Shown here piece after piece: positions 19,145-56,017 of a stretch of DNA of 64,000 nucleotides. The notes below the pieces were generated by a model, which saw only the letters and a program-made list of their open reading frames with translations, made no database searches and was not told where the DNA came from. The stretch is from positions 19,617 through 83,616 of the forward strand of contig JAGZEG010000004.1 of NCBI GenBank assembly GCA_018368455.1, read 5' to 3'. Positions within the stretch are counted from its first letter, which is position 1. Every line of letters begins with the position of its first letter. This stretch comes from Coriobacteriia bacterium (GTDB lineage: Bacteria > Actinomycetota > Coriobacteriia > Coriobacteriales > UMGS124). The position numbers were made by a program, and so were the translations under genes.

Positions 19145-19177
19145 GGCGCGAACTCCGGGGATCGCGAGTCATAGCGT

Positions 19178-19230: not shown

Positions 19231-19256
19231 GAGCGATAGGCTATCGGGTGGGCGGC

Positions 19257-30782: not shown

Positions 30783-30789
30783 GAACAGT

Positions 30790-31300
30790 GTTCTCCCGCT
30801 GTTTGCACGGGAGCTTGTGGGCAAAGAAATTCATCGCTATTATTAGCAATGCTTTTCCCTTATAGGATGGAACATGCTCTTTGTCGTTTTTATTAGGTAA
30901 ATCAAAATAATATGTATTTTTATAAATTATTAGTTTTGATAATAGATTATCTCTACTTAATTTCATTATATCATAACATTTAGTAATATCAAAACTTCAT
31001 CTGATGCTTTGCATGCATTCGCAAAGCAATACCGAACTTCAATATCATTCCAAGTATCATCGGATATCGATGATTTGCTGGCGTATTCGGGCCACGCTTT
31101 CTCTATTTCACGTAACCGTCTATTTTCATAAAAGAAAATCCTCTGCTCTGCCTGTGAGTTTTCGCTACCGCTTACACCATGGTCTTTGATATAGAGATCG
31201 CGAACATAGTCATCTCTCGTATACGCCATTATTCGTCTCCTTAAAGCAGTAATTTACCTATTAAAATTATAGATAATATGTAGGCCGCGTAGCTATTTTG
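30790..31300. other. AT-rich foreign insert (compositional island)
   Basis: Hand counts of individual 60-nt lines give roughly 13-35% G+C (e.g. 30901-30960 has 8 G/C of 60), against a clearly GC-rich background. It carries a minus-strand TATAAT box, an RBS, one small ORF and the 5' end of a second, truncated ORF. Confidence 0.6.
30966..31229 (-). CDS. Hypothetical small protein (87 aa) encoded in the AT-rich insert
   Basis: RBS 'aaggagacgaata' lies upstream of the ATG and 'tataat' approx 45 nt upstream. The stop overlaps (TAATG) the start of a second AT-rich ORF (MKLSRDNLLSKLIIYKNTYYFDLPNKNDKEH...), which runs out of the island into GC-rich antisense sequence and is probably truncated. I recognise no family. 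Confidence 0.35.
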   Translation of the reverse strand: MAYTRDDYVRDLYIKDHGVSGSENSQAEQRIFFYENRRLREIEKAWPEYASKSSISDDTWNDIEVRYCFANACKASDEVLILLNVMI

Positions 31301-31645
31301 CAAGCGGGGGGTGTCAATGCCTCTTCTGATATTCGCAAAACTCGATGCAAATTTGCTTTGTGTGATGGGTTGTCAGAACACCTTCTATCCACCGAATGCT
31401 TCGACGCCCTGCATGGCGGACGTCGGCACGGGTCTTATGAAGATACGTGGGGCCAAGTGCGCTCGATCACCAGTCGGAGACTAGGGTGGATGGACTTTTG
31501 CCCGCCGAGTAATATGCGCTTCTCTCCAGGGGTGAGAAGAAGTGCCTGCAACTTCTCGCGAATGACGAGAAGTTTTGGTAGAATCTTCTTGTGAATAACA
31601 CGAAGTATGGCTATGCCGAATTATGCCAATCGGAGGATGACCCTT

Positions 31646-34505: not shown

Positions 34506-35471
34506 CTACTCCTCGTACAGATGGCATGCGACCGTGTGACCGGGGGCGAACTCGCGGATGGCGGGCTCGACGCGCGCGCAGACGTCCATGCGACGTGGGC
34601 ACCTCCCGCAGAAGCGGCAGCCGGGCGTGGGGTTCACGGGACTCGGAGCGTCGCCGCTCAGCACGATGCGCTCCCGTTCGTGTGCGAGCTTGGGGTCGGG
34701 GATGGGCGCGGCGGCGAGCAACGCGCGGGTGTAGGGGTGCAACGGCTCGCGGTAGAGCTCCTCGGCCGGCGCGTGCTCCACGAGCTTGCCCAGGTACATG
34801 ACGCCCACCTGGTCGGAAATCTGCTTGACGACAGCCAGGTCGTGCGCGATGAACAGCATCGTGAGCCCGCGCTCGCGCTGCAGTCGGATGAGCAGGTTCA
34901 CGATCTGCGCCTGCAGGGAGACGTCCAGCGCCGACACGGGCTCGTCACACAGCAGAAACTCCGGGCCCACCGACAGTGCCCGCGCGATGCCGATGCGCTG
35001 ACGCTGCCCGCCCGAGAACTCGTGCACGTTGCGCTCGGCGCACTCGGTACCCAAGCCCACCTGGTCGAGCAGGTTGAACACCATCGTGCGCTCCTCGGCC
35101 CGGCTGCGCGCCAGCTTGTGAATGCGGATGCCCTCGGCCACGATGGCGTAGACCTTCTGCTGTGGGTCGAGCGAGGCATAGGGGTCCTGGAACACCATCT
35201 GCGCCTGCCGCGTGAAGGCGAAGCGCTCGCGGCGCCCCATCGTGTGGACGTCGGCGCCGCGGAAGCGCACCTGCCCGTCCGTGCGGCCCAGCACGCCAAG
35301 GCACGTCTTGCCGCATGTCGTCTTGCCGCAGCCTGACTCGCCCACCAGGCCGAGCGTCTCGCCGCGCCGAATGGAAAACGACACGTCGTCGACGGCCTTG
35401 AGCAGCTGGCCTGCGCCAACGGGATAGTACTTCTTGAGGTGCGACACCTCGAGTTCCACGTCGCCGGCCAT
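34506..35471 (-). CDS. Oligopeptide/dipeptide ABC transporter ATP-binding protein (OppF/DppF-like)
   Basis: Walker A 'GESGCGKTT', signature 'FSGGQRQRIGIARAL', Walker B 'LLCDEPVSALD', and the C-terminal oligopeptide-transporter extension 'PLHPYTRALL...CRFCGRCP'. Confidence 0.9.
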   Translation of the reverse strand: MAGDVELEVSHLKKYYPVGAGQLLKAVDDVSFSIRRGETLGLVGESGCGKTTCGKTCLGVLGRTDGQVRFRGADVHTMGRRERFAFTRQAQMVFQDPYASLDPQQKVYAIVAEGIRIHKLARSRAEERTMVFNLLDQVGLGTECAERNVHEFSGGQRQRIGIARALSVGPEFLLCDEPVSALDVSLQAQIVNLLIRLQRERGLTMLFIAHDLAVVKQISDQVGVMYLGKLVEHAPAEELYREPLHPYTRALLAAAPIPDPKLAHERERIVLSGDAPSPVNPTPGCRFCGRCPRRMDVCARVEPAIREFAPGHTVACHLYEE

Positions 35472-36614
<1,143 letters not shown>

Positions 36615-37613
36615 CTACCTCGCCACCTTCGGCGCCAGCGCGCTGCGCAGCACGTCTCCCAGCAGGTTGAACGCCAGCACGGTGATCAGGATCATCAGTC
36701 CCGGGTACACGGCCAGCATCGGGTGGCTTAGGATCTGCGCCTGGGCACCCTGTAGCATGCTGCCCCACGACGCGTAGGGAATGGATACGCCCAGCCCCAG
36801 AAAGCTCAGCGACGACTCCGACAGGATGGCGCTGGCCACGCTCAGGCTTGCCGCGACGCTCACCGGCCCTAGGATGTTCGGCAGGATGTGCAGCACGGCC
36901 ATGCGTAGGTGTCCCGCGCCTAGCTGCCGCGTCGCCACCATGAAGTCGCGCTCCTTGAGCGAGAGCGTCTCGGCGCGGGTGATGCGGGCGACCGACGCCC
37001 ACCCGAACAGGCTGAGCACGGCGATGAGCGTTGGGATGCTCGGTCGCAGAAACGCGTTGAGAATGACCATGAGCAGCATGCTCGGCAGCGCGAGGAACAC
37101 GTCGGTGAAGCGCATGAGCAGCGTGTCGAGCTTGCCGCCCACATAGCCCGCCGCGATGCCGATGAGCGAGCCCAGGGCCACCGTCAGCAGCATGGCGCAG
37201 AAGCCGACGAGCAGCGAGATACGCCCGCCGTACAGCACACGCGTGAAGTAGTCGCGGCCGTACTCATCGGTGCCGAACCAGTGCGCCGCCGAGGGCCCGA
37301 GCAGCTTGGACTTGACGTCGAGCGCGTAGGGGTCGTAGGGCGACAGCGGCGCCAGCAGCGTCGCGATAATGACGACCAGCAGCAGGATCGTGCTGACGAG
37401 CGCGAGCTTGTTGGCGACGAGCTCGCGCAGGAACGTTCGCGCGAAGCCGATGGCCTTGGGAGGCAGTTGCGTGCGATCGCGCTTCTCGAGCCGCTCGAAC
37501 GCGCCGGCCTCGAACTCGAGCCGCGGCAGCGCCCGGCCCTGGGCAGCTGGCATCTCGGCCTCGTCCTCGGTGGCAACGCTTCCGGCCTCGATGACGTACC
37601 CAGTCCTAGCCAC
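36615..37613 (-). CDS. Peptide ABC transporter permease (DppC/OppC-like)
   Basis: Multi-TM protein with an N-terminal OppC-type region and the BPD-transporter motif 'ETLSLKERDFMVATRQLGAGHLRMAVLHILPN'. Confidence 0.9.
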   Translation of the reverse strand: MARTGYVIEAGSVATEDEAEMPAAQGRALPRLEFEAGAFERLEKRDRTQLPPKAIGFARTFLRELVANKLALVSTILLLVVIIATLLAPLSPYDPYALDVKSKLLGPSAAHWFGTDEYGRDYFTRVLYGGRISLLVGFCAMLLTVALGSLIGIAAGYVGGKLDTLLMRFTDVFLALPSMLLMVILNAFLRPSIPTLIAVLSLFGWASVARITRAETLSLKERDFMVATRQLGAGHLRMAVLHILPNILGPVSVAASLSVASAILSESSLSFLGLGVSIPYASWGSMLQGAQAQILSHPMLAVYPGLMILITVLAFNLLGDVLRSALAPKVAR

Positions 37614-38580
37614 GGTGGCCCCCCTTCTCGGCGACGAGCTTGATGCGCGGGTCGACGACGGCGTACAGCACGTCGGCCAGGAAGTTGCCCACGACGAGGA
37701 TCGTGCCCGACAGCATGATGTAGGCCATGATGACTGTGTAGTCGCGCGCCCCGATGGCGCTCATCGCCAGCGTGCCTACGCCGGGCCAGCCGAACACGGT
37801 CTCAATGATGAACGAGCCGCATACCAGCGATGCCAGGTTCATGCCCAGCAGTGTCACGATCGGCAGCAGCGTGTTCTTGAGCACGTGCTTGAACAGCACC
37901 TTCACTCGCGGCGTGCCTCGCGACTCCGACGCCAGCACGTACTCCTCGCCCAGCTGGCCTATCGTGTTGGCTCGGATGTAGCGGATGTAGACGGCCACCT
38001 CGCCCAGCGCCAGCGCCAGCGTCGGCATGATGAGGTGCCGCAGCGTGTCCAGGGGCCCCTCGGAGCCTACGGTGTGCATGCCCGAGGAGGGCAGCACGTG
38101 CAGCACGGCTGCGAACAGGATGATGAGCAGCATGCCGAACCAAAACGAGGGGATGGACATGCCGACGTAGGACACTCCGCTGATGATGGCGTCGGCCTTC
38201 GAGTTGCGCCGGTAGCCAGCCCACAGCCCCAGCGGGATGGCCAGCACGAGAGCCAGTCCTAGCGAGCTGCCCATGAGCAACAGCGTGGCGGGCAGGCGGT
38301 TGGCGAGAAGCGTTGCAACCGGCATGTCGTGATTCGTCGCCGAGACGCCGAGGTCTCCCTGTATCGCTTTGGATGCCCAGGCGAGGTACTGCTCGGGCAG
38401 GCTCTTATCGAGCCCGAGCGTCGCAATGACGGCAGAACGTTGCTCATCGGTCATGTCGGGCGTGATGTACATCTGCGAGATGTCGCCGGGCGCGAAGTAG
38501 ATGACCGCAAACGACAGAAACGAGATGAGCACGAGCACGACGGCGAGTTGGACGGCTTTCTTGACGACGTATCTCAGCAT
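37606..38580 (-). CDS. Peptide ABC transporter permease (DppB/OppB-like)
   Basis: 'MLRYVVKKAVQLAVVLVLISFLSFAVIYFAPGD' is the typical DppB N-terminus. 'SESRGTPRVKVLFKHVLKN' is the EAA-type loop. It overlaps the next gene by 8 nt. Confidence 0.9.
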   Translation of the reverse strand: MLRYVVKKAVQLAVVLVLISFLSFAVIYFAPGDISQMYITPDMTDEQRSAVIATLGLDKSLPEQYLAWASKAIQGDLGVSATNHDMPVATLLANRLPATLLLMGSSLGLALVLAIPLGLWAGYRRNSKADAIISGVSYVGMSIPSFWFGMLLIILFAAVLHVLPSSGMHTVGSEGPLDTLRHLIMPTLALALGEVAVYIRYIRANTIGQLGEEYVLASESRGTPRVKVLFKHVLKNTLLPIVTLLGMNLASLVCGSFIIETVFGWPGVGTLAMSAIGARDYTVIMAYIMLSGTILVVGNFLADVLYAVVDPRIKLVAEKGGHRG

Positions 38581-40293: not shown

Positions 40294-40434
40294 GTGGGCT
40301 GGGCGACCCGTTGGGGCCGCAGGGAGGTTGAGTCGTGGCGTGCCCGAACCGGACGCGCGTGGCTGGTGCTCAGGGCGATGCCCCACGTGCGGCGGGAGCG
40401 CTTTTCCCTGCAGGCTGCCCTGGAATCGCGGCAT

Positions 40435-40645
40435 GAAAAAAGCCCTGGCCGTGGGCGCCCTCTGCGCTTCCACCTGCCAAGACCCTCGTTTGCTCTTCTG
40501 CTGCCACGCCTCTCGCCGCACGGGCGAGGATGGCTGTTCTGTTGGACCCGCGACCCTGCACACGGCAGGTCGTTGCACTACATGATCCCCGTATCCCCAT
40601 GTCTTCTCGCACCTCCCTTCCCTCATTCTTGGCTCGGATTCATCG
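40435..40645 (-). ncRNA. Structured 5' leader with intrinsic terminator (candidate riboswitch/attenuator), copy 1; paralog of 48819..49040
   Basis: RNA sense: ...UCAUGUAG-UGCA-ACGACCUGCCGUGUGCAGGG-U-CGCGGGU...CAGAAGAG...GCAGAGGGCGCCCACGGCCAGGGC-UUUUUU. A 40-nt block (40545-40584) is 35/40 identical to 48891-48930. The terminator hairpin is at approx 40442-40486 and the U-run at 40436-40441. Confidence 0.5.
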
Positions 40646-40756: not shown

Positions 40757-41908
40757 CTATCCTGCCAGCTCGCCCGTGATCTCGGTCATTGCGGCGATGC
40801 CAGCGTCGATCTCGTCTTCGGTGTTGAGGTGCGAGAAGCTGAAGCGCACGGCTCCCTGGCTCACGGTGCCCAGCGCGCGGTGCATGAGCGGCGCGCAGTG
40901 CGCTCCGGAGCGCGTGCAGATGCCGTAGTGCTCGGCCAGCAGGCTCGTGATGCGCCCCGAGTCCACCTCGCCCACGTTGAGCGCCACGACGCCCGTGCGC
41001 GCTACGCCGCCGTGACCGCCGTACACGCGCACGCCCGGCAGGTTCGCGACGCCGGTCTCGAAGCGCTCTGTGAGCTCGGCCACGCGTGCGGCCACGTGCT
41101 CCACGCCGACGCGCTGCAGGTAGTCGATGCCGGCTGCGAGTCCCGCCAGTCCGTGCGCGTTGAGCGTGCCGGCCTCGAGGCTCTCAGGCATCGCAAGCGG
41201 CTGACGCTCGTCGTAGCTGTGCACGCCGGTGCCGCCCTCGAGCAGTGGGCGCACCTCGACGCCTTCCGCCACGCAGAGCCCGCCTGTGCCCTGCGGCCCC
41301 AGCAGACTCTTATGTCCGGTGAAGCACAGCACGTCGACGCCGAGGGCAGCCATGTCGACGGGCAGGGCGCCGGCCGTCTGCGCCGCGTCGAGCACGAACA
41401 GCGCCCCGACCTCGTGGGCCATGTTCGCCATACGCGCCACGTCGTACACGTCGCCCGTGAGGTTGGAGGCGTGCGTCGCCACGACGAGGCGCGGCCGTCC
41501 GGTGCGCAGCAGCTCGCCATAGGCGTCGAAGTCGAGCGAGGCATCGGGGCGGATGGGCGCTACGTCCACGGCGCAGCCTCGCTCGTCGCGCGCGCGGAAC
41601 AGCGGGCGCAGCACCGAGTTGTGGGAGGCAGCCGTTGTGAGCGCCCGGTCGCCGTCGCGCAGCAGGCCCGCGATGGCGACGTTGAGCGCTTCGGTGACGT
41701 TGTAGCCAAAGGCCACGCGCGAGGGGGAGGGGGCGCCCAGCAGCTCGGCAACCTTGCGCCGCGCGTCAAACACCGCCATGTCGGCCGAGATGGCGGCGTC
41801 GTGCGCCCCGCGCCCCACGTTGCCAAACGTCGTGAGCGCGCGCACGACGGCGTCGACGACCTCCTGCGGGCGGGCCATGGCCGTGGCGGCGTTGTCGAAG
41901 TAGATCAT
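40757..41908 (-). CDS. Class V aminotransferase-fold, cysteine desulfurase family protein (NifS/SufS-like)
   Basis: 'MIYFDNAATA', 'ATHASNLTG', PLP-lysine region 'FTGHKSLLGPQGTGGL', and active-site Cys loop 'TRSGAHCAP'. Confidence 0.85.
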   Translation of the reverse strand: MIYFDNAATAMARPQEVVDAVVRALTTFGNVGRGAHDAAISADMAVFDARRKVAELLGAPSPSRVAFGYNVTEALNVAIAGLLRDGDRALTTAASHNSVLRPLFRARDERGCAVDVAPIRPDASLDFDAYGELLRTGRPRLVVATHASNLTGDVYDVARMANMAHEVGALFVLDAAQTAGALPVDMAALGVDVLCFTGHKSLLGPQGTGGLCVAEGVEVRPLLEGGTGVHSYDERQPLAMPESLEAGTLNAHGLAGLAAGIDYLQRVGVEHVAARVAELTERFETGVANLPGVRVYGGHGGVARTGVVALNVGEVDSGRITSLLAEHYGICTRSGAHCAPLMHRALGTVSQGAVRFSFSHLNTEDEIDAGIAAMTEITGELAG

Positions 41909-41989: not shown

Positions 41990-42226
41990 TTACAGCTCGA
42001 TGTCGAACACGCCCTCGTGGGTGATGCCGTGTGTTTCAAGCGCTCTTACGACGACGTCGCGCTCGGCGGCCTCGGCGCGCCACGCGAGCCCACAGCCTGC
42101 GGAGATGGCCGACGGAATCGGGATGAGCCGCCCGGGGATGCCCAGGCGCTTGGCCGCGTCCTCCATCCCGCATGCATCCGGCGTATTCGCAAACGTGACC
42201 ACGACGCACGGCCGCTTTTCGAGCAT
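41990..42226 (-). CDS. DUF3343-domain protein (putative sulfur/selenium carrier-like)
   Basis: 78 aa. 'VVTFANTPDACGMEDAAKRLGIPGRLIPIPSAISAGCGLAW' matches the DUF3343 pattern (beta-alpha fold with 'IP.P..IS..CG'). RBS 'gaaggagag'. It lies directly upstream of the desulfurase-family gene. Confidence 0.7.
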   Translation of the reverse strand: MLEKRPCVVVTFANTPDACGMEDAAKRLGIPGRLIPIPSAISAGCGLAWRAEAAERDVVVRALETHGITHEGVFDIEL

Positions 42227-42394: not shown

Positions 42395-43597
42395 CTAGAG
42401 CGTCTCGATAAAGGCGGCGATGCGCGTCTCGATTTGCCCCGAGTCGCCCATGGAGTAGTCGGTCTCGAGCTTCATGTACGGGACGCCGTGCTCCTCCATG
42501 ACGCGGCCCATGCGCGCGGCCTCGATGTTGAACGTGTGGCATGCCTGCAGCACGGCATCGATGACGCCGTCGACATGGTACTTCTCCACCATGGCCAGCG
42601 TGTTCTCCATGCGGCCCTCGTTGGGCGTCATGACGGAGCAGTTGATGTTCAGGTAGCGCTCTGCGATGGCGCGCAGGATGTCGGGCGCCTCTTCGTCGAC
42701 GAGCAGCTTGTTCGTGCGCTCGCCGGAGCAGTCGTCCAGGCAGACGATGACGCCGCCGTTGGCCTCGATGACCTTGCCCACCTTGTTGATGAGGCCGCCG
42801 GAGGGGCAGCCCGTCAGCAGGATGCGCTTTGCGCTGGGAGAGACCTCGCTTTTGCCCTCAGCAGCCTGTGCGGCACGCTGGTTGACGAGCTGCTCGACGC
42901 GGTCGGCGAAGTTGTGCACGTCGAAGTTGAACGACCCGGCTAGAAGCGAGCTCATCATCTCGGTGCCGCGCACGGCCGGCGGCTCAGAGGTCTGCAGGTT
43001 GTAGAGCTTGATGAGGGCGCGGCGCAGACGGTTGCGCGTGCGCGCGGCCTCGCGCAGGTCGTCATCGGTGATCGTGATTCCGTAGAAGTCCTCGAGATAC
43101 CCCTTGAACCGCTTGAGCTCCTCGTACCACTCGTCGTGCTCGTAGGAGCGCGAGCGCGAGTTGGGCAGGTGCAGCACGTACGTGTTCTTGAGATCACCGA
43201 GCAGCTCGTACATCTTCTTTTTGCCGTCGCACGTCGTCTCGCCCACGATCATGTCGGCGAAGTACGTATAGGGGCACTTCTCCGTAAGCGCGAAGCCGTA
43301 CGTCGACTTGATGAGCGGGCAGAGGTTCTTGGGCAGCACGGTCTCGGCGGCGGGAATCGTCTCGTCACTCATGCCGCACAGGCCGACGGCCGACACGTGG
43401 GCGGCGTCGAGGATCTCGAGCGGGGTGAACGAGCACAGCACGCCGGCAAGGCGCCCTCCGCTCTCCTTGAACTGCTTGACGCGCATGAAGCCGGCCTTGC
43501 GCTGCTCGTTGAACTCCTCGAACGTGCGGGGCAGCGGCTCAAGCTCCTCGGTTGAACTCTTCTGAACTTCGGGTTCAATGGTCGTTTCGGCGCTCAT
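42395..43597 (-). CDS. Double-cubane-cluster-containing anaerobic reductase (2-hydroxyacyl-CoA dehydratase/BcrBC-superfamily, YjiM-like)
   Basis: 400 aa. '[24 protein letters not shown]', '[11 protein letters not shown]', '[13 protein letters not shown]', 'LLTGCPSGG', '[10 protein letters not shown]' and '[11 protein letters not shown]' give the multi-Cys pattern of the single-subunit HgdB-like family. It is adjacent to its activase. Confidence 0.8.
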
Positions 43598-43678
43598 ATT
43601 GGCGTTCCCTCTCTTTTTTCCTATGGTTCGACGGGGTTGCGTGCCTGTTCAGCGCGTCCGGCCCCGCGTTCGTTTCTC

Positions 43679-44512
43679 TTACAGGTGGGCTGCCGAGATG
43701 GCTGCCCCGATGGCACCGGCATAGCGCGCTTGCGGGCGTGTCACCACCTCGTGACCGAGATGTGCGCCGAGCTGGGCGACAAAGTAATCGTTGTCGCACA
43801 GGCCGCCCGTCAGGAAGTACGAACCCGCCGCGTCGCCGCTGACCTGCCCTACGAGCGCGGCGACCTTCTTGACGACGCTGCCGATGATGCCGTTGGCGAT
43901 GTTCTCGCGCGGCTCTCCCTTGCCGACGAGCGAGATGACCTCGCTCTCGGCGAACACGGTGCACATCGTCGAGATCGTTGTGGGCTGGCCGGCGCGCGCA
44001 AGGCGTGACAGCTCCTCCTGGCTGACGCCGAGGCGGTTGGCCATGATCTCGAGGAAGCGCCCCGTGCCGGCAGCGCACTTATCGTTCATGACGAACTTCT
44101 TTACGTTGCCGCCGGCCAGGTGCATGACCTTCGTGTCCTGTCCGCCAACGTCGACAACGACGCCATCGGGCCCGAACAGATATGCCGCACCGCGCCCGTG
44201 GCACGTGATCTCCGTGATGGCCTTGTCGGCATAGGGCACGGCGATGCGGCCGTATCCCGTGGCGACGCATGCGAAGCTTCCCTTGGGATAGCCCGCCTCT
44301 TCGAGCATTCCCAGGGCCCGCTCGGCGGCATCGACGCTGCTGTACCCCGTGGGTGCGAGCAGCGTGCGCTCGAGTGCGAGCGAGCCGTCTTTCGCAGCGG
44401 TCCTCGCCGCCGCGGCTTCGTCTCCAGCGAAGGCCGTGACTGCCTCGGCAGGCAGTCCCATAACGGCGATCTTCGTTGCGGTCGAGCCGATGTCAACGCC
44501 TACGTAGTGCAT
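43679..44512 (-). CDS. BadF/BadG/BcrA/BcrD-type ATPase: acyl-CoA dehydratase/double-cubane reductase activase (YjiL-like)
   Basis: 'MHYVGVDIGSTATKIAVMG' (ASKHA phosphate-1), 'VVVDVGGQDTKV', and the cluster-bridging Cys motif 'NDKCAAGTGRFLE'. Confidence 0.85.
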   Translation of the reverse strand: MHYVGVDIGSTATKIAVMGLPAEAVTAFAGDEAAAARTAAKDGSLALERTLLAPTGYSSVDAAERALGMLEEAGYPKGSFACVATGYGRIAVPYADKAITEITCHGRGAAYLFGPDGVVVDVGGQDTKVMHLAGGNVKKFVMNDKCAAGTGRFLEIMANRLGVSQEELSRLARAGQPTTISTMCTVFAESEVISLVGKGEPRENIANGIIGSVVKKVAALVGQVSGDAAGSYFLTGGLCDNDYFVAQLGAHLGHEVVTRPQARYAGAIGAAISAAHL

Positions 44513-44557
44513 GGTTCTCCTTGCTGTTCTCCCCCTGGGCGTTCGCGCGCGCCTGTC

Positions 44558-45775
44558 CTACAGCGTATGCACTGCCACCGTGAGCCGGTCGAGCGCCTCG
44601 CGCAGCACATCCGTGGGGCAGGCGATGTTTATGCGTTCGAAGCCGGCGCCGCCCGTTCCGAACGCGGCGCCTTCGTCTCCGAACAGGTGCGCCCTCGTGT
44701 GCAGGAATGTTTTGAGCGTGTCTGCGTCCATGTCGAAAGCGCGCATGTCAAGCCACTGCAGGTACGTCCCTTCAAGCGGCATGACCTTGATCTGGGGTAG
44801 CTCGCGTGCCACATAGTCTTCGACAAAGCGGCGGTTGCCGTCGAGCACCTCGAGCAGCTCGTCGAGCCAGTTCTCGCACTCGTTGTATGCGCAGGCGCAC
44901 ACCGGGTATGCAAACGCGTTGAGGCTGAACGGGCCGCCGCGCCTGAACCCGAGCCGCTTGAACTTTGTTCGTACTTCCTCATCGGGAATGAAGATGTTCG
45001 AGCACTCGAGCCCGGCTAGGTTGAACGTCTTGGACGGGGCGGTGCACACGGCGATGTGACCGAGTTCGTCGTCTGGAATGACGCGTGCCAGCGTCGTGTG
45101 CGTGTGTCCGGGCATGATCAGGTCGTTGTGGATCTCGTCGCAGACGATGAACACGCCGTGGGCCAGACAGATCTCGGCGCAGCGGCGCAGCTCGCCGGCC
45201 GTCCACACACGGCCGGCGGGGTTGTGCGGGCTGCACAGCAGGATCATCTTTGTCGCAGGGTCGGCGGCCTTGCGCTCAAGGTCGTCGAAGTCCATCTCGT
45301 AGTGGGCCTGCGGCGTGCCGTCGCCCACAAGCCGCAGCGGATTTTCGACAAGCGTGCGGCCGGCGCTTTGGACGGCGCTCTTGAACGGGAAGTAGACCGG
45401 CGGCTGAATGATGACGCCGTCGCCGGGCTCTGTCAGCGCCTCGACAAAGCGGTAGAGCGCCGGCACGACGCCCGGGCACGTCGCGATCCAGTCGCGCTCG
45501 GGCGCCCACTTGTGGCGGCGCTCCTGCCAGCCGATGACCGCTTCATAGTAGGCGTCAGTGGGTCCGGTGTAGCCGAGAATGGCCTCGTCGGCGATGCGAT
45601 GCAAACACGTGGCGATCTCGGGCTGCTTGACGAACTCCATGTCAGCTACGGACAGCGGCACGACGTCGGCAGGGACATCGGGGCAGTCTTTCAACATCCC
45701 GTCCCATTTGGACGAGCCAGTGCCGGCGCGATTGACGCGCGTCGTAAAGTCGTACCGCATAGCATTGCGTCCCAT
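44558..45775 (-). CDS. PLP-dependent C-S beta-lyase of the MalY/PatB family (cystathionine beta-lyase-like)
   Basis: 'YDFTTRVNRAGTGSSKWDG', 'LLCSPHNPAGRVW', 'VCDEIHNDL', PLP-Lys 'TAPSKTFNLAGL', 'GTGGAGFERINIA'. RBS 'aggagg'. 12 nt after the upstream permease. Confidence 0.85.
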   Translation of the reverse strand: MGRNAMRYDFTTRVNRAGTGSSKWDGMLKDCPDVPADVVPLSVADMEFVKQPEIATCLHRIADEAILGYTGPTDAYYEAVIGWQERRHKWAPERDWIATCPGVVPALYRFVEALTEPGDGVIIQPPVYFPFKSAVQSAGRTLVENPLRLVGDGTPQAHYEMDFDDLERKAADPATKMILLCSPHNPAGRVWTAGELRRCAEICLAHGVFIVCDEIHNDLIMPGHTHTTLARVIPDDELGHIAVCTAPSKTFNLAGLECSNIFIPDEEVRTKFKRLGFRRGGPFSLNAFAYPVCACAYNECENWLDELLEVLDGNRRFVEDYVARELPQIKVMPLEGTYLQWLDMRAFDMDADTLKTFLHTRAHLFGDEGAAFGTGGAGFERINIACPTDVLREALDRLTVAVHTL

Positions 45776-45787
45776 AAGGGGCGCCTC

Positions 45788-46504
45788 CTATCCTTTGCGA
45801 GGCTGCAGCGCCCGATATCGTCCAGCGCGCAGCTCGATGACGTGGAACACGCGGTTGAACGCGAAGCTCAGCACCTCGTAGATGATGGTGACGAGCAGGT
45901 AGGCTTCGAGGTAGGCGTAACTCTGGTTTGCCTCGAGCACGCTTGTCGCCATGATCTCGTGGACGCCGACGAAGTACGCCAGCGACGTGCCGTGCAACAG
46001 GCCCACGAACAGGCCGTTGAGGTTGGGCAGCGCCGCCACGATGGCCTGGGGCAGCACGATGCGCCTCATGGCTTGGCCGTGCGTCATGCCACACGCCAGC
46101 GCCGCCTCCATCTGCGTCGCGTCCACCGAGGCGATGGCCGAGCGCAGCACCTCGCACGAGTACGCCGCCTGGTTGAGCACGAACGTCAGCACGGCGAACA
46201 CGACGGGCGGCACCGCGGCGACGTTGGCCTCGATCCCGGCGGACAGCAGTGCGTTGTAGATGACGACCGGCATGAAGTAGTACATGACGTAGAGCAGCAC
46301 CACTTCGGGCACGGAGCGCATCATGGACACAAACACGGCGACGAGCTGGTTGAGGACGGGGATGCGCTTGAGCCGGGCCTGGGCGAGCGCGAAGCCGAGC
46401 AGCCAGCCGAGTGGGGCCGAGGCGAACACCATGGCCAGCGTCAGCGGCAGCGCGCTGAGGACCGCGGGGGCCGCTTGGAGCAGGAAATCGACGTCGAAGA
46501 TCAT
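45788..46504 (-). CDS. Amino-acid ABC transporter permease (His/Glu/Gln/Arg/opine family)
   Basis: Polytopic, with conserved loop 'EVLRSAIASVDATQMEAALACGMTHGQAMRRIVLPQA'. Confidence 0.85.
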   Translation of the reverse strand: MIFDVDFLLQAAPAVLSALPLTLAMVFASAPLGWLLGFALAQARLKRIPVLNQLVAVFVSMMRSVPEVVLLYVMYYFMPVVIYNALLSAGIEANVAAVPPVVFAVLTFVLNQAAYSCEVLRSAIASVDATQMEAALACGMTHGQAMRRIVLPQAIVAALPNLNGLFVGLLHGTSLAYFVGVHEIMATSVLEANQSYAYLEAYLLVTIIYEVLSFAFNRVFHVIELRAGRYRALQPRKG

Positions 46505-46517
46505 CGCGGCACCCCCC

Positions 46518-47225
46518 CTACGCCGTTGCCCGGCGACGCCCGCGCGTCGTCGTGCGCTCGAGGCCCATGAACGCGAGCATGAGCACGACGCACACCACCC
46601 AGTAGATGATGGCGACGGAGACGTAGAGCTCGAGGCGATAGGCGCCGTAGTTGGCGGCGGCTATGACGTTTGCGCGCCCCATCATGTCGATGACGCCGAT
46701 GGAGAACGCCAGTGACGTGCTCTTGAACAGCGAGATGACGAGGTTGCCGAACAGCGGGATGGCCGTGGCGACGGCCTGGGGCAGCACGATGCGGCGCACG
46801 GCCTGCGCCTGCGTCATGCCGCAGGCCAGGGCCGCCTCCGTCTGAACGCGCGGCACGGCGAGAAACGACGAGCGCATCATCTCGCCCATGTCGGCGCTGG
46901 CGATGAGCGAGAGCGCCGCCACGATGAAGTACACCTTGTTCGCCGCCGCGATGTCTATTCCCGCCGTCGCTTTGAGCACCTGCGGAAGCGCGAAGTACAG
47001 CAGGAATATCATCACGAGCGACGGGATGCCGCGCATGAGCGACACCCAGGTGCGAGCGATGACGTGCGCCCAGCGCTTCGAGCCGAGCTGCGCCATGGCG
47101 ACGAGCAAGCCAAGGGCCATGGCGATGAGCAGCGACGTCACCATGATGAGCAGCGTCAGGGGAAACGCTTGGAGCACCTTGAGTATGAACTCGGGGATTC
47201 TCTCCGGGAATACCAGGTAAGTCAT
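46518..47225 (-). CDS. Amino-acid ABC transporter permease (His/Glu/Gln/Arg/opine family)
   Basis: 'EMMRSSFLAVPRVQTEAALACGMTQAQAVRRIVLPQA'. The start is placed at 'MTYLVFPERIPEF' (47225); the track ORF extends to 47297. Confidence 0.85.
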   Translation of the reverse strand: MTYLVFPERIPEFILKVLQAFPLTLLIMVTSLLIAMALGLLVAMAQLGSKRWAHVIARTWVSLMRGIPSLVMIFLLYFALPQVLKATAGIDIAAANKVYFIVAALSLIASADMGEMMRSSFLAVPRVQTEAALACGMTQAQAVRRIVLPQAVATAIPLFGNLVISLFKSTSLAFSIGVIDMMGRANVIAAANYGAYRLELYVSVAIIYWVVCVVLMLAFMGLERTTTRGRRRATA

Positions 47226-47376: not shown

Positions 47377-48363
47377 CTACTTGCCAGCCTCCTTGGCGTC
47401 CGACGCAGCCGAGCTGTCCTTCTGGGCGCTCACGTCGACGAGGACGCCGTCATCGGAGACGGAGTAGTACGTGTCGCCCTTGCCGACGATGATGTCGGCG
47501 CCCTCCTTGAGGAAGTCAGCGTTCTCGGCGAACACGTCGCCGCCGAGCCACTTCTTGCCCAGCTCGCCGAGGCTGCCGTCAGACTTTGCCTCCCTGAGCG
47601 CCGTCGTGAGGTCGGCCGCCAGACCCTCCATGCCGGGGCGCAGCATGAAGAAGTCTAGGCCGTACGTGACGGTCTCCGTCAGTGCGAGGTCGGTGCCGGC
47701 TCCCTGCTGAATGGAGTCAAAGCTCGAGACGAGCGTGTAGCAGGCATCGGCCTGACCGTTGGCGACGGCGCGGAACCAGCTCGCCACATCACCGACGTTC
47801 TCGGCTTCGACGAGCTCGATGGCCTCGTCGGGATGCTCGTCGTTGTACTTCACGAGGGCCTGGTAGTAGGCGTTCGTCGGGTTGACGAGCAGCTTCTTGC
47901 CAGCCAGGCCATGGACGTCCGTGATGCCGGAGTCCTTGCGCACCGCCGCTGCCATGGGCCCGATGCAGTAGGGCTCCTCGGGGAAGATGAACTTCTCGAG
48001 GCGCTCGGGCGTGCGGGCGATGGCGCACGACACGAGGTCGCATGCGCCCGACTGCAGCGAGGCGACCATGCTCTGGAACTGCATGCCGTCGAACTGGAAC
48101 TGGTACTTTCCGCCGAGCTTCTGTTCGCAGAGCTTCAGGACATCGATGTCATAGCCCTGCAGCTCGTTGTCCTCGTTGACGAAGCAGTACGGCTTCGTCT
48201 GGTTCGAGGTGATGATCTTTACGACCTGCGGGTTGTCGGCGGCAAAGGCACGGCACGTCAGAGGGGCAGCCGTGCTGGCGATCGCGAGGCCGGCGGCCAG
48301 GCAGAAGAAGCTGCGGCGGGAGATGCCACGCGTGCTGGACGCGGTGGAGTGGGCGCTGTTCAT
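47377..48363 (-). CDS. Amino-acid ABC transporter substrate-binding protein (family 3) with Tat-like signal and C-terminal extension
   Basis: 'SRRSFFCLAAGLAIASTAAPLTCRAFA', then an SBP_bac_3-like body ('KPYCFVNEDNELQGYDIDVLK...'). It is a paralog of 51134..52198, including the shared tail 'GADIIVGKGDTYYSVSDDGVLVDVS'. Confidence 0.85.
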   Translation of the reverse strand: MNSAHSTASSTRGISRRSFFCLAAGLAIASTAAPLTCRAFAADNPQVVKIITSNQTKPYCFVNEDNELQGYDIDVLKLCEQKLGGKYQFQFDGMQFQSMVASLQSGACDLVSCAIARTPERLEKFIFPEEPYCIGPMAAAVRKDSGITDVHGLAGKKLLVNPTNAYYQALVKYNDEHPDEAIELVEAENVGDVASWFRAVANGQADACYTLVSSFDSIQQGAGTDLALTETVTYGLDFFMLRPGMEGLAADLTTALREAKSDGSLGELGKKWLGGDVFAENADFLKEGADIIVGKGDTYYSVSDDGVLVDVSAQKDSSAASDAKEAGK

Positions 48364-48434: not shown

Positions 48435-48662
48435 TTACTGAATGCCTGCGACAGACGTGGGCTCGGGATCTGCCTGCTGAGTGTCGGCGGGGATGGGACG
48501 GCGGGGCGTCGGGCGATTGGTCGTCTCGCGTTCGGGGCGCAGGGCGACGAGGCCGCCAACTAGGCTGATGCCGGCAATGCCCAGGGCGATGCCGACGAGG
48601 TCGTTACGCGACGCTGCGCCGAAGCGGGCAGGGCCGTGCGAAGAGGGGGTGTTCACACTCAC
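48435..48662 (-). CDS. Possible small membrane protein (75 aa) between leader 2 and the binding-protein gene
   Basis: A GTG-initiated ORF with one hydrophobic helix ('LVGIALGIAGISLVGGLVAL'). No recognisable RBS or family, so it could be non-coding. Confidence 0.25.
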   Translation of the reverse strand: MSVNTPSSHGPARFGAASRNDLVGIALGIAGISLVGGLVALRPERETTNRPTPRRPIPADTQQADPEPTSVAGIQ

Positions 48663-48818
48663 GATGTGACCTGCGTTTCTCGAAGACGCGCAACAAGGCG
48701 CATGCCGATGCGGGCTGCCCAGACCGGGCGGGTGTTTCGCTCACTCAGGGCGAGGCGCCGCGAGCCGGATGGGGCGACACCGTCGCGGGCCGAGAGCGGT
48801 CGGCCTGTTTTTGCGCAT

Positions 48819-49040
48819 AAAAAAAGCCCTTGCCGCGCCCTCTGTTGGCGCCGCCCGGGACCTCTTCTGTGCTGGCTGCTCTTCCGTTGTACCCGCGTCC
48901 CTGCACACGGCAGGTCGTCTCTCTACATGACGATCGTCCCTGCCCCTTGCTCCATGGCATCATGTGAACACCCCCTCTCTCCGTAACGTGGGCGCATCGC
49001 TGATCTGCGTACTGCGCGCGATGCCCCTTCTCCATCTGCT
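48819..49040 (-). ncRNA. Structured 5' leader with intrinsic terminator (candidate riboswitch/attenuator), copy 2
   Basis: RNA sense: ...GGAGAGAGGGGGUGUUCACAUG...UCAUGUAG-AGAG-ACGACCUGCCGUGUGCAGGG-A-CGCGGGU...CAGAAGAG...CCCGGGCGGCGCC-AACAGA-GGGCGCGGCAAGGGC-UUUUUUU. The terminator stem is at approx 48826-48862 and the U-run at 48819-48825. Confidence 0.5.
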
Positions 49041-49219: not shown

Positions 49220-50776
49220 ATGCTGGATCGTGACGTACAGGTGAAGGATGGCATGTCGTCGGGCCTTGCTGGCCGACGGCGCGGGGGTGGGATTGACATG
49301 GGCGCGCAGCGCTCCGCTGACAGCAAGATGCCCGGGACGATGGTGCACGACTCCTCGTACGACTCGATGCCGCACTCGCTCACGAATGCTGAGATCGAGG
49401 CGCTCGAGCATGAGCTCTCCACGCGCACGATCGACTCGCGCCACGACTCCCACCTCCATCGCAGCGCCGACCTGCGCAGCCTCAAGCTCCGCTGGGAGAG
49501 CGTCATCGAGGACCGGGACGTGCTGGCAAAGGACGCGAGCATTTCCACGAAGTCCTCCATCGTCATGCGCGTCGGCCGGCTCGTGCTGTCAAGCGGTGCG
49601 AGCGGCTATCGCGTCGAGAAGGTCATGGGGCACGTGGCGGCTCTGCTCGGGACTTCCTGTCAGGCTGAGGTGGGCCTCGTGTCCATTGACCTGACGATCA
49701 CGGACGGCCACGCCGCGTTTACCGAGGTCGCCTCCCTTCCGGCGACGGGCGTCAACACGGAGCGCATGCAGATCCTCGAGCGCGTCGTCGACGAGCTCGA
49801 GGAGGGGTTGGGCGAGTTGACGGTCAGCGACGTGCATCGTCTGCTCGACACGATCGAGAAGCATCCCGGCCGCTACAGCCCGTGGCAGCAGGGTCTCGCG
49901 GCGGGCCTCGCGTGCTGCGCGTTCGTCTTTCTGCTCGGCGGTGGGCTCATCGAGATGTTCGGCGCCCTCGTCGGCGCAGGCATCGGCAACTTCGTGCGCT
50001 GCCTCATGCTCAAGCGCCGCATCAACCAGTTCGGTTCCGCCGCGCTCTCCGTTGCTGTTGCGGGTCTGTGCTACGCCGCGACGCTCGCCCTGCTGTCGCT
50101 GGTCATCCCCAACGCCATGCACCACGCGGCGGGCTATATCGGCGCGATGCTCTTCGTCATTCCGGGCTTCCCGCTCATCACGAGCGGCCTGGATATCGCG
50201 AAGTTCCGCTTTGCCTCGGGCCTCCAGCGGCTGGCGTATGCGCTCACTATCGTCATCGGCGCCACGATCGTGGGGTGGATGATTGCCAAGCTCGTGGCAC
50301 TGCAGCCCGATGAGTTTGCGCCACTCGGGCTCGATCCGGGCGTGGAGTGCCTGCTACGCGTCGTGGCGAGCTTTGTCGGCGTGTTCGGCTTCTCCGTCAT
50401 GTTCAACAGCCCGCCGCGCATGTGTCTGGCCGCCGCGCTCATCGGGGCAGTCTCCAACACGGCACGTCTCGAGCTCATCGATTTCGCGGGTATGCCGCCT
50501 GAGGCCGCCGCGTTGCTGGGCGCCCTCATCTCGGGCTTGCTCGCGTCCGTTATCGGCCTTCGCTTCACCTTGCCGCGCATCAGCCTGACCGTGCCGTCCA
50601 TCGTCATCATGGTGCCGGGCCTCTACCTGTACCGCGCGATGTACTACCTGGGCGACCTTAGCGCGATGGCGGCGCTGAGCTGGGGCATGGAGGCGTTCAT
50701 CATCATACTGTGCCTGCCGATCGGTCTGGCGATCGCGCGCATGCTCACCGACAAGAACTGGCGCTACGACCGATAG
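49220..50776 (+). CDS. Threonine/serine exporter family protein (ThrE; fused YjjP-like DUF1212 plus YjjB-like DUF3815)
   Basis: 'IVMRVGRLVLSSGASGYRVEKVMGHVAALLG' is typical of ThrE/DUF1212, followed by approx 10 TM helices. The start is uncertain (track 49085; ATGs at 49220 and 49253). Confidence 0.8.
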   Translation: MLDRDVQVKDGMSSGLAGRRRGGGIDMGAQRSADSKMPGTMVHDSSYDSMPHSLTNAEIEALEHELSTRTIDSRHDSHLHRSADLRSLKLRWESVIEDRDVLAKDASISTKSSIVMRVGRLVLSSGASGYRVEKVMGHVAALLGTSCQAEVGLVSIDLTITDGHAAFTEVASLPATGVNTERMQILERVVDELEEGLGELTVSDVHRLLDTIEKHPGRYSPWQQGLAAGLACCAFVFLLGGGLIEMFGALVGAGIGNFVRCLMLKRRINQFGSAALSVAVAGLCYAATLALLSLVIPNAMHHAAGYIGAMLFVIPGFPLITSGLDIAKFRFASGLQRLAYALTIVIGATIVGWMIAKLVALQPDEFAPLGLDPGVECLLRVVASFVGVFGFSVMFNSPPRMCLAAALIGAVSNTARLELIDFAGMPPEAAALLGALISGLLASVIGLRFTLPRISLTVPSIVIMVPGLYLYRAMYYLGDLSAMAALSWGMEAFIIILCLPIGLAIARMLTDKNWRYDR

Positions 50777-51035
50777 GGGCGGCCGGGCCTGCTGGGCGAC
50801 ACGCTGGCTTTGCTCGGGGAGCCTCGCTTCGTGGGCAGAAATCGAGTTCGTGAATGGGCCGTCTGGAAGCCGAGGCTCGCTCGCTGCATGCGACCTGCGG
50901 TTTTGCTGGCTGCATGGCGCGCCGTGGTCTCTTCGGTTGCGAGGCGGCATGCATCAGCTCTGTTTCTGTCCGTGGAACGGCGGATCCGATGCGAAAGTGC
51001 TCGCGCTGCGGCGACGAGGGACCTTCCGCGCGCCC

Positions 51036-51080
51036 AAAAAAGCCCGGGGGCGATGGACTTCCCATCCGTCGCCCCCGGGC
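51036..51080 (-). terminator. Intrinsic terminator downstream of the minus-strand binding-protein gene
   Basis: Plus strand: AAAAAA-GCCCGGGGGCGATGGA-cttc-CCATCCGTCGCCCCCGGGC. On the minus strand this is a strong hairpin followed by a U-run. Confidence 0.6.
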
Positions 51081-51133
51081 GCTGCGAGATCTTGTGGCGG
51101 ACGCCTCGCTGGTCGGGAGGGGCGTCCGCAGAC

Positions 51134-52198
51134 TTAGTCGCGAGAGGCATCCTTTGTCGAACTTGCAGAGTTCGCCTTTGCGTCCTTGGACGAGCTCGCG
51201 GAGCCTACCTTTGCGTCGGCGTCCGAGCTCGCCGCGCTCAGCACGCCGTCCTCGACGACGGAGTACACGGACGACCCACCGTCGATCATGATGTCGGCAC
51301 CGATGGGGAAGTCCGGATAGGCGGCGAATACGTCTTCGCCGAACCACTGCTGCGCCACCTTGCCGAGCGAGCCGTCCTCGCGGGCGGTCGCTAGGGCGGC
51401 TGACACGTCGGCGCACAGCTCCTCGTCGCCGACGCGCATCAGGTAGTACAGCGCGTTGATCATGACAGGGCCCACGGCCACGAGGTCAGTGCCGGCGCCC
51501 TTCTGAGCGTCGTCGAAGCCGCCCTTGAAGATGAGGATGCCGTCGCACTGGCCGTTCTCGACAGCGCGGAACAGGTCGGCGTCGCTGACGATGGGATCCT
51601 GGCTGTTGACGGTGATCTGCGCGTCGGGATGGTCGGCGTTGTACTTGAGGATGGCCTGGTACTCGGCGAGCGTCGCGTTGCAGCGCAGCGTCTTGCCCGC
51701 CATGTCAGCCAGGCTCTCGATGCCCGAGTCCTTGCGCACGGCGAGGACCATGGGGGCGAGGCCGTAGGGCTGGTCGGGCACGAGGTACTTCTCGAGGCGC
51801 TCCTCGGTACGGGAGAGCGCGCAGCTCGCCATGTCGCTCGAGCCGGACTGCAGCGAGGCGATCATCGTATCGAACGGCATGCCCTCGAACGAGAACGCGT
51901 ACTTGCCGTCGAGCTTCTCCTCGACGAGCTTGAGGCTGTCGATGTCGTAGCCGGCCAGTTCGCCGTCTTCGTTGATGAAGCAGTAGGGGCGCGTCGAGTT
52001 GTTGCTGGAGATCTTGACGGCGCAGGCCTCTCCCTGCGCGGGGGCATCCGATCCGGCGTCGCTGGCTGCCGTGTCGGTGTCAGCTCCGCAGCCAGCGAGC
52101 ACGAGGCTCAGGGCACCGGCGCCGGCAACTGCGCCGCCTAGCCCGATGAATGATCGGCGTGAGATGCCCGCTGCGGGACGTATGTCGTGCTGTGCCAT
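51134..52198 (-). CDS. Orphan amino-acid-type substrate-binding lipoprotein (family 3), paralog of 47377..48363
   Basis: 'ISRRSFIGLGGAVAGAGALSLVLAGCG' (Tat plus lipobox). The body is collinear with the 47377 protein ('RPYCFINEDGELAGYDIDSLK', 'ASLQSGSSDMASCAL'). Low-complexity Ser/Ala/Lys/Asp tail. RBS 'gggagagg' fits the ATG at 52198. Confidence 0.8.
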   Translation of the reverse strand: MAQHDIRPAAGISRRSFIGLGGAVAGAGALSLVLAGCGADTDTAASDAGSDAPAQGEACAVKISSNNSTRPYCFINEDGELAGYDIDSLKLVEEKLDGKYAFSFEGMPFDTMIASLQSGSSDMASCALSRTEERLEKYLVPDQPYGLAPMVLAVRKDSGIESLADMAGKTLRCNATLAEYQAILKYNADHPDAQITVNSQDPIVSDADLFRAVENGQCDGILIFKGGFDDAQKGAGTDLVAVGPVMINALYYLMRVGDEELCADVSAALATAREDGSLGKVAQQWFGEDVFAAYPDFPIGADIMIDGGSSVYSVVEDGVLSAASSDADAKVGSASSSKDAKANSASSTKDASRD

Positions 52199-55571: not shown

Positions 55572-55679
55572 CGTCGCCCTCGGCCTCGTGGCCGGCGCGT
55601 GGTGTGACCCTGTGCGGGGTCCAAGTTGTCTCCCGTCTGCTACTATTACCAGGTTCCCCCGGGTCTGTGGTTGCGGGCG

Positions 55680-55930: not shown

Positions 55931-56017
55931 GGCCGCACGCAGCGGCCCGTATGTCGGCGCAAGCGACGCCCGTACCAGCCGAGCGCGCTCGCCGCGAGCC
56001 AGAAGAGAGCTGACGCC

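Follow-up and report, generated by a model that had tools for sequence, protein, structure and literature searches.

This report concerns a two-gene reductase system, and the operon around it, in a 64,000-nt stretch of DNA (the window; GC content ~65%) from contig JAGZEG010000004.1 of a metagenome-assembled genome (MAG) of a Coriobacteriia bacterium (GCA_018368455.1). The two genes almost certainly encode a two-component system of a double-cubane cluster protein (DCCP) and its ATP-dependent reductase (DCCP-R). It was found that the true conserved partners of this DCCP are a DUF3343 protein and a class-V pyridoxal phosphate (PLP) enzyme, not the PatB-type lyase encoded next to the pair. Judging from these neighbours, I tentatively read the region as a chalcogen-salvage island, most likely for selenium, in which the DCCP would give low-potential electrons; the chance that this is right seems a little short of even. 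All coordinates refer to the whole window. The arrangement of the genes is real: an independent assembly contains an identical stretch of 16.2 kb, and a second assembly shows the genes in the same order.

A double-cubane cluster protein and its activase

An earlier note, made from the sequence of the window, had described here a YjiM/YjiL-like pair of the DCCP family. Its two open reading frames (ORFs) are as follows, and their coordinates agree with that note.

42395-43597, minus strand: DCCP, predicted to carry an [8Fe-9S] cluster; 400 aa; NF040772, 6ENO, seven motif Cys
43679-44512, minus strand: DCCP reductase/activase, an ASKHA 'archerase' ATPase with a predicted bridging [4Fe-4S] cluster; 277 aa; TIGR00241, 1HUX, 7YYL_E

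The family assignment is borne out by profile and structure searches. The 400-aa ORF matches Pfam HGD-D (PF06050) with 368 bits and the NCBIfam model NF040772 ('double-cubane-cluster-containing anaerobic reductase') with 482.8 bits against a cutoff of 350, while the next model, BzdN, reaches 95. The sister equivalogs stay far under their cutoffs (BzdN 95 vs 453.8, HadC 80 vs 700, BadC 53 vs 421). The closest solved structure is the DCCP of C. hydrogenoformans (PDB 6ENO/7YYL, E=4.5e-84). DCCPs form 'cluster IV' of the FldB/C family. Their seven-Cys signature consists of six cluster ligands and one nearby Cys (PMC7317905). Taken literally, the published regular expression matches nothing in the window protein, whose spacings are X18 and X29 versus the published X19 and X32-34. 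I set this failure aside because the alignment shows all seven Cys conserved, with spacings off by 1-3 residues: C55, C74, C93, C123, C290, C320, and C353 each pair with a Cys of 6ENO and do not vary among the close relatives, a 39%-identical paralog, and the C. hydrogenoformans protein (DCCP_Ch). Thus, the cluster-ligating Cys pattern, which the earlier note had named as a check, is present by alignment.

The activase gene lies 81 nt upstream of the DCCP gene. Its product matches TIGR00241 ('acyl-CoA dehydratase activase') with 214.9 bits against a cutoff of 125.4, as well as Pfam BcrAD_BadFG, and its structure matches are HgdC (1HUX, E=4.6e-45) and DCCP-R (7YYL_E, E=6e-35). Residues C146 and C184 align with Cys of the 1HUX motifs MNDKCAAGTGRF and C-T-V-F-A-E-S-E-V, which I take to be cluster ligands. 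The conserved cluster cysteines of DCCP-R are C115 and C152 (PMC9351452). By homology, the activase with its bridging [4Fe-4S] cluster would inject ATP-energised electrons into the [8Fe-9S] double-cubane cluster. The pair is newly placed in the DCCP family here, and its relatives already carry the DCCP naming at NCBI. In a MAG record, an identical copy of the 400-aa protein carries the name '2-hydroxyacyl-CoA dehydratase [Coriobacteriia bacterium]'.

The window DCCP shares ~40% identity over ~360 residues, and the seven motif Cys, with the C. hydrogenoformans protein (CHY_0487/0488 for DCCP/DCCP-R; 6ENO, 7YYL). Both systems are two-gene pairs with an adjacent ASKHA activase, and the window activase has Cys at both HgdC-aligned positions. 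They differ in the N-terminal region before the aligned core, which is ~21 residues shorter in the window protein, in the gene order (activase then DCCP in the window), and in the setting of the window pair among PLP lyases, a Se/S carrier, and importers. E. coli YjiM/YjiL, a proposed class II DCCP compared here by its published description, also falls under NF040772 (Haft and Gwadz), with a seven-Cys motif and a partner activase. YjiM has 388 aa (PMC7317905) versus 400 aa in the window, and no selenium or lyase context is reported for it in the literature. The dehydratases HadBC/HgdAB (HadI/HgdC) and the class I benzoyl-CoA reductases (Bzd/Mbd) have the same PF06050 fold and the same type of activase, as the 1HUX match shows. 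Their substrates, however, are CoA thioesters, and they are heteromers in which each subunit holds one [4Fe-4S], whereas the window has a single subunit type and the double-cubane Cys set.

Conserved partners and the genomic link to selenium genes

The conserved module of this DCCP subfamily consists of the activase, the DCCP, a DUF3343 protein, and an EF2568/SclA-type class-V enzyme, and is elsewhere extended by YedF and SelD. In the window, the two partner genes are these:

41990-42226, minus strand: 78-aa DUF3343/Se_S_carrier protein; PF11823, 70.6 bits vs 25
40757-41908, minus strand: class-V PLP enzyme, probably of the EF2568 family (cysteine desulfurase/selenocysteine-lyase-like); Aminotran_5, 278 bits

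The DUF3343 gene, which the earlier note had overlooked, fills an apparent 486-nt 'gap' 3′ of the DCCP gene, and the cysteine of the AGCGLAW motif is present. The class-V enzyme barely passes TIGR01977 (377.5 bits, cutoff 377) and falls short of the SclA model NF040779 (325.7 vs 525); its translation shows GHK and RSGAHCAP motifs. The earlier note had taken the gene context as a clue to the substrate; the clue was incomplete, as the DUF3343 and class-V genes had not been seen.

Is the module common outside the window? I analysed 80 genome loci, mostly of Collinsella, whose DCCP is 65-69% identical to the window protein, and scored the neighbours within 10 kb. SelD and YedF are present in 69/80 loci and the class-V enzyme in 66/80, the remainder being mostly short contigs. 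The activase and a second DCCP paralog are present in nearly all, and PatB in none (0/80). In one locus (L001), SelD-YedF-DUF3343-classV-DCCP-DCCP-activase are contiguous on one strand. A Collinsella aerofaciens locus (L044) has SelD (TIGR00476, 340 bits), YedF (TIGR03527, 212 bits), a TIGR01977 protein (419 bits), an 88-aa DUF3343 homolog, and a ModABC-like importer upstream. The clusters of Collinsella, Atopobiaceae, and Slackia share with the window an orthologous DCCP (65-69%), the activase, DUF3343, and the class-V enzyme (52-55% identity). Unlike the window, they have the DCCP before the activase, a second DCCP paralog, and SelD and YedF, and they are without PatB and the leader element described below. 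The window has both of these and a cystine-like importer, and no SelD or YedF nearby.

The closer relatives are named below by the identity of their DCCP to the window protein. In the 74-93% relatives, the activase, the DCCP, and the class-V gene are found in every locus, and DUF3343 in all except the P0008 loci (L083/L084). The association with selenium genes recurs in metagenome lineages with a GC content from 0.35 to 0.71 (L124, L126, L127, L148, L158). Counted by hand in metagenome loci of at least 12 kb, class-V, DUF3343, YedF, or SelD neighbours accompany 15 of the 19 DCCPs of at least 60% identity versus 2 of the 22 below 60%. The importers that recur beside DCCP are of the polar-amino-acid type, the Opp/Nik type, the ModA type, and a SaoP/SaoA-like type.

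A DCCP-selenium association has already been published as bioinformatics. Haft and Gwadz found 955 of 970 NF040772 proteins in SelD-containing assemblies (bioRxiv 10.1101/2022.07.06.499078). In a STRING table for Slackia from 2015, activase and 'dehydratase subunit' genes were linked to selenocysteine lyase, YedF, DUF3343, and SelD (PMC5322559, Table 1), and DCCP and DCCP-R were drawn among putative selenium genes (PMC10418091, Fig. 5). In the window itself, tblastn with Collinsella SelD and YedF found nothing in 64 kb, and both are also absent within 10 kb on either side of the DCCP of the closest relatives. ARAGORN found no tRNA in the window. No selenoprotein family was recognised in Pfam scans of the window, in which in-frame UGA codons and SECIS elements were not searched for.

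PatB, the importers, and a shared leader element

The DCCP module forms the distal half of an eight-gene same-strand unit, in the order SBP3, permease, permease, PatB, activase, DCCP, DUF3343, and class-V enzyme. A second operon lies downstream. The locus L086 supplied the gene calls for SBP3 and the lengths of permease 1 and SBP5.

47377-48363, minus strand: family-3 solute-binding protein (SBP3), polar amino acid type, with a Tat/lipoprotein-like N-terminus; SBP_bac_3
46518-47225, minus strand: ATP-binding cassette (ABC) permease 1, 235 aa per the L086 gene call (mechanical ORF to 47297); BPD_transp_1
45788-46504, minus strand: ABC permease 2; BPD_transp_1; PRK15100, 127 bits, below cutoff
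44558-45775, minus strand: PatB/MalY-type PLP C-S lyase of a DCCP-linked paralog clade; TIGR04350
38653-40278, minus strand: family-5 solute-binding protein (SBP5), peptide/nickel/opine type, 541 aa per the L086 gene call
34506-38580, minus strand: OppB, OppC, OppD, and OppF-like permeases/ATPases of the second operon; profile matches and L086
33034-34389, minus strand: M20 amidohydrolase at the end of the second operon; TIGR01891, 262.7 bits vs 153.75

The earlier note had placed a dedicated amino-acid importer upstream of the pair. A binding protein and two permeases are present, but a complete importer is not. The cystine-binding-protein model PRK11260 is among the top matches of SBP3 (57 bits vs a cutoff of 312, thus below it), and permease 1 scores best with the model of the cystine ABC permease PRK15100, at 117 bits, also under the cutoff. 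Profile scans found no ABC ATPase of the polar-amino-acid type in the operon or in the 64-kb window, and tblastn with the ABC ATPase of the 93% relative (L081) matched only the Opp ATPases and an ABC-F protein. The window importer lacks its ATPase because PatB sits where the 93% relative has the ABC ATPase. That relative is syntenic throughout, with 79-93% nucleotide identity, and has a 312-aa ABC ATPase in the PatB slot between permease 2 and the activase (window 44513-45787 vs L081 7957-9082), the DNA being otherwise collinear. Nor is the importer conserved together with the pair. In L087, an apparent SBP3 'pseudogene' (5688-5751) was rejected as evidence of decay, since the ORF is split at a run of N together with low-GC sequence of unrelated origin, which marks a scaffold gap or an insertion.

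PatB matches TIGR04350 with 398.1 bits against a cutoff of 340, and an SKTFN motif was seen by eye in its translation. Its stop lies 45 nt before the start codon of the activase, with no predicted terminator in between; the tight linkage seen by the earlier note is real, with its 46 nt corrected to 45. The gene immediately upstream of the activase is PatB in the window and in three further close lineages, about half of the closest lineages. The 80% relatives (P0008, P0009) have PatB-activase-DCCP-classV-Opp. P0126 has M19 dipeptidase-DUF3343-PatB-activase, and P0127 has DUF3343-[leader]-PatB-activase-DCCP in a locus syntenic with L082 apart from PatB. On the other side, the 87% relative (L082) has DUF3343-[leader]-activase-DCCP-DUF3159-classV and the 74% relative (L085) DUF3343-activase-DCCP-classV, both with no PatB. 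In a neighbour-joining tree, the DCCP-linked PatBs form one clade, separate from a clade of sbcCD-linked PatBs, and 5/5 members with a known context are DCCP-linked. Thus, PatB is a recurrent, dedicated but dispensable accessory, and the core is the activase, the DCCP, and the class-V enzyme, usually with DUF3343. The earlier note had named a lack of conservation of the patB linkage as a refutation of its reading. Taken strictly, this refutation applies, given the 93%, 87%, and 74% relatives and the 80 genome loci, but the linkage is not random.

The sbcCD-linked PatB (61% identity) was found as a second PatB in L096 and L097 (8001-9209), the latter from the sample of the window (ERZ28599210); in L097 it is followed by a complete SBP3-permease-permease-ATPase set, Amt/PII, RidA, and an Orn/DAP decarboxylase. 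The window MAG probably has two PatB paralogs. In two low-GC loci (L138/L139, GC 0.38; L138 8526-14280), a DCCP of 56% identity comes after a PatB-like gene (290 bits with TIGR04350, below cutoff), and the ABC genes after the DCCP best match SaoP/SaoA of the selenocysteine-assisted organometallic system; within 10 kb of the L138 DCCP, a tblastn search for an activase found none. Operons for sulfur amino-acid salvage in B. subtilis (PatB with TcyJKLMN, yxe/ytm) also combine a polar-amino-acid ABC importer, a PatB-type lyase, and an M20 amidohydrolase, but they are without DCCP, activase, DUF3343, and class-V enzyme.

Comparison with the 93% relative revealed a non-coding leader that is present twice in the window:

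48792-48961, minus strand: leader copy 1, upstream of the SBP3...class-V operon; core ACGACCTGCCGTGTGCAGGGACGCGGG at 48892-48918, terminator-like hairpin, U-run
40391-40618, minus strand: leader copy 2, upstream of the Opp-type operon; core at 40547-40573, variable hairpin, terminator, U-run

The invariant 27-nt core ACGACCTGCCGTGYGCAGGGNCGCGGG occurs twice in the window, with 0 occurrences expected by chance. The full leader of ~130-230 nt has a core hairpin, a variable hairpin, and a terminator-like stem and U-run with compensatory changes. In the relatives, it lies upstream of SBP3 and SBP5 in L081 (5020-5213, 13006-13235), of activase-DCCP in L082 (5681-5888), of DUF3343-activase-DCCP-classV in L085 (8558-8763), of SBP5-opp in L100 (8907-9100, minus strand), and of PatB-activase-DCCP in L183 (6983-7126). 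Since it is common to the DCCP module, PatB, and both importers, I argue that these form one regulon. It also speaks for transcription of the eight genes from SBP3 to the class-V enzyme as one unit; a scan for promoters and terminators was uninformative, with counts at the level of shuffled sequence.

The leader may be a new riboswitch, attenuator, or operator, and the half-palindromic invariant core could equally be a protein operator. The case for it is built on sequence invariance, position, and terminator covariation, as the folding energies are only weakly better than those of shuffles (z -0.5 to -1.8). No Rfam 15 family matched the leader in a scan of the whole window at the gathering threshold, and the leader regions gave only chance-level matches at E up to 10. 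The exact core pattern had 0 matches in the metagenome contig collection. A coding region was rejected as an explanation, since the two window copies are not in the same frame of the mechanical ORFs and one has an insertion of 30-40 nt relative to the other. L081 lacks ~310 nt of the sequence that separates leader copy 1 from SBP3 in the window; the missing part contains a GTG-started putative ORF of ~75 aa with one hydrophobic helix (48435-48662, minus strand). In leaderless PatB-linked lineages, another conserved element precedes PatB (L083 7629-7827, L084 1-193, L101 7426-7826, L092 7481-8003), consisting of a strong ribosome-binding site, an upstream ORF of 13-14 codons, and then a conserved GC-rich hairpin (…CCCGAGCTCGCCTGGTCGGGG…).

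Several other features of the window were recorded. At 49298-52198, a ThrE-family exporter on the plus strand separates the operon from an orphan second family-3 binding protein (51134-52198, minus strand), an arrangement that is kept in L081. A raiA RNA motif (RF03072, 151.7 bits vs 101.3) at 55654-55910 on the plus strand runs into the 5′ end of an ORF resembling a family-3 binding protein (55880-56962); a hibernation-factor gene (57056-57760) follows downstream. At 733-4550 and 15059-22956, three LuxR(GerE)-type regulators are found near three FAD_binding_2/FMN_bind flavoprotein reductases (2577-4550, 16844-19144, 19257-21212), a pattern typical of Eggerthellaceae-like Coriobacteriia. At 30001-32000, the GC content dips to 0.55 versus ~0.65 elsewhere; this stretch, which may be foreign or mobile DNA, lies between genes for a PIN-domain protein (28486-29034) and an AAA_14/DUF4143 protein (31607-33013).

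Possible functions of the module

The recurring neighbours of DCCP fall into four groups: two unrelated families of C-S/C-Se PLP lyases, the Se/S carriers DUF3343 and YedF, SelD, and importers. If the region serves chalcogen salvage, the two PLP lyases would split imported Se/S amino acids or peptides, the class-V enzyme by forming an enzyme-bound Cys-S-Se(-)/Cys-S-S(-) species and PatB by beta-elimination of seleno/thio-conjugates or (seleno)cystine. DUF3343 would act as the carrier of the chalcogen, and with low-potential electrons from DCCP a product that is organo-Se or at the Se(0) level would be converted to selenide, on which SelD acts. The amino-acid importer and PatB would be lineage-specific accessories that broaden the usable precursors. 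The Se(0)/HSe- couple is far more negative than the S(0)/HS- couple; therefore, an ATP-driven reductase would make sense. DCCP is proposed as the reductant to selenide because NifS-like enzymes, which form Cys-S-Se(-) and can feed selenophosphate synthetase, leave the chalcogen enzyme-bound (PMC3266270). In a sub-variant, PatB would release methylselenol from Se-methylselenocysteine, and DCCP would demethylate it reductively; PMC3266270 cites a mammalian 'methylselenol demethylase' activity (ref. 15). The earlier note had suggested that the substrate derives from the imported amino acid or from its beta-elimination product. This is plausible, but the evidence favours the released chalcogen (Se or S) and not the carbon skeleton. 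A functional likeness is offered by MarBHDK, the nitrogenase-like methylthio-alkane reductase, an ATP-driven low-potential metalloenzyme of anaerobes whose reductive C-S cleavage frees the chalcogen. Its fold and cofactor are unrelated, so the proposed organo-selenium role may be likened to it by function and not by homology; methylthio-alkane reductase is mentioned in PMC10418091.

Several points weigh against selenium salvage. The link of DCCP to selenium consists of co-occurrence and synteny only, and SelD and YedF are absent from the window and the surroundings of the closest relatives, as described above. The class-V enzyme, with its bare pass of TIGR01977 and its failure in the SclA-specific model, may act on cysteine. 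Ordinary thiols can reduce sulfoselenides and persulfides, so it is not evident why an ATP-driven reductant would be needed. The importer, having no ATPase, may be non-functional. In addition, the sampled distant DCCPs (<60% identity) are mostly without selenium or sulfur neighbours. The broadest form of the idea is therefore put forward as a rather doubtful conjecture. It holds that this DCCP subfamily supplies the ATP-driven reductase so far missing from bacterial selenium salvage. To provide SelD with selenide, it would convert either Se(0)-level Se (a sulfoselenide on the Sec-lyase-like enzyme or on DUF3343) or organo-selenols, such as methylselenol, that the dedicated PatB paralog releases, and the module and its importers would be switched by an as yet undescribed chalcogen-sensing leader RNA.

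What else could the DCCP do? It might reduce an organic product of the imported amino acid after beta-elimination by PatB (a thiol, or an unsaturated or 2-aminoacrylate-derived compound), the S/Se neighbours being incidental. The 45-nt spacing with no predicted terminator, the DCCP-linked PatB clade (5/5), and the PatB-like gene beside the distant DCCP in L138/L139 fit this, and DCCP_Ch reduces small unsaturated molecules in vitro (PMC7317905). I nevertheless regard it as unlikely, since the module persists without PatB in the 93%, 87%, and 74% relatives and in 80/80 Collinsella/Atopobiaceae-type loci, and L082 and L183 are syntenic while differing in the presence of PatB. Moreover, the carbon products of beta-elimination (pyruvate, ammonia) require no low-potential reductase, and the importer is neither conserved nor equipped with an ATPase. 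A module for sulfur only, in which cysteine, cystine, or cystathionine is degraded or its sulfur mobilised and DCCP reduces a persulfide, a polysulfide, or a C-S compound, with no role of selenium, would suit the cystine transporters at or near the top of the permease and binding-protein models, a PatB of a C-S lyase family, a class-V enzyme that fits the cysteine-desulfurase family model, the lack of selD in 64 kb, and a DUF3343 family without a selenium-specific subfamily (PMC5322559). Against it, S(0)/HS- chemistry needs no ATP-energised electrons, many lineages have SelD and YedF interspersed among the genes of orthologous modules, and SelD is present in nearly all DCCP genomes (Haft and Gwadz). 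I consider this explanation, too, improbable.

The class-V enzyme and DUF3343 might instead be NifS-like maturation factors that deliver sulfide (or selenide) for the double-cubane cluster, with a DCCP substrate unrelated to the neighbours. Cysteine desulfurases are classically encoded beside their client Fe-S enzymes, and of the close relatives whose contigs extend far enough, all but L100 have the class-V gene a short distance 3′ of DCCP, with DUF3343 in most. Haft and Gwadz raised the delivery of selenide to the cluster as a formal possibility, and a Se-containing cofactor would also account for the co-occurrence with SelD (bioRxiv 10.1101/2022.07.06.499078). However, DCCP_Ch, whose [8Fe-9S] cluster is characterised, was overproduced in E. 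coli and was brown with Fe-S clusters, and the available part of that paper names no dedicated partner (PMC7317905). The clustering of Sec-lyase-like, DUF3343, and YedF genes near SelD and other selenium genes has been described for these genes as a set, with no mention of a DCCP (PMC5322559), and 20 of the 22 more distant DCCP loci are without class-V, DUF3343, YedF, or SelD neighbours. Such a maturation role has, in my estimate, a low probability. Finally, the domain name HGD-D and the annotation of the identical protein might suggest a component of a true 2-hydroxyacyl-CoA dehydratase or class I benzoyl-CoA reductase with its partner subunits elsewhere. This is hardly tenable: NF040772 is above its cutoff whereas the equivalogs reach only 53-95 bits where 421-700 are required, none of the seven Cys of the DCCP signature is missing, and the locus has a single HGD-D (PF06050) gene, with no CoA-transferase or ligase.

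As the earlier note had stated, the physiological substrates of the DCCP family are unknown (PMC7317905, PMC9351452). A literature search found no experimental substrate, those reported being only the non-physiological acetylene, azide, and hydrazine. The locus and its relatives narrow the candidates to Se/S species freed by two PLP lyases and carried by DUF3343, so that the open question of function is made more testable, not answered. As far as the literature shows, the DCCP-linked PatB paralog clade, the swap of PatB and ATPase, the shared leader, and the restriction of the physical linkage with selenium genes to this DCCP subfamily are new. Collinsella aerofaciens, which carries the orthologous cluster, is cultivable, and the ligand or regulator of the leader would report what the system senses. 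If the selenium reading fails, the locus is still a well-annotated DCCP operon. If it is true, it would account for the published near-universal co-occurrence of DCCP and SelD and would bear on how gut Coriobacteriia compete for dietary selenium, and a selenium-salvage role of the DCCP subfamily would be the first physiological function for an [8Fe-9S] enzyme.

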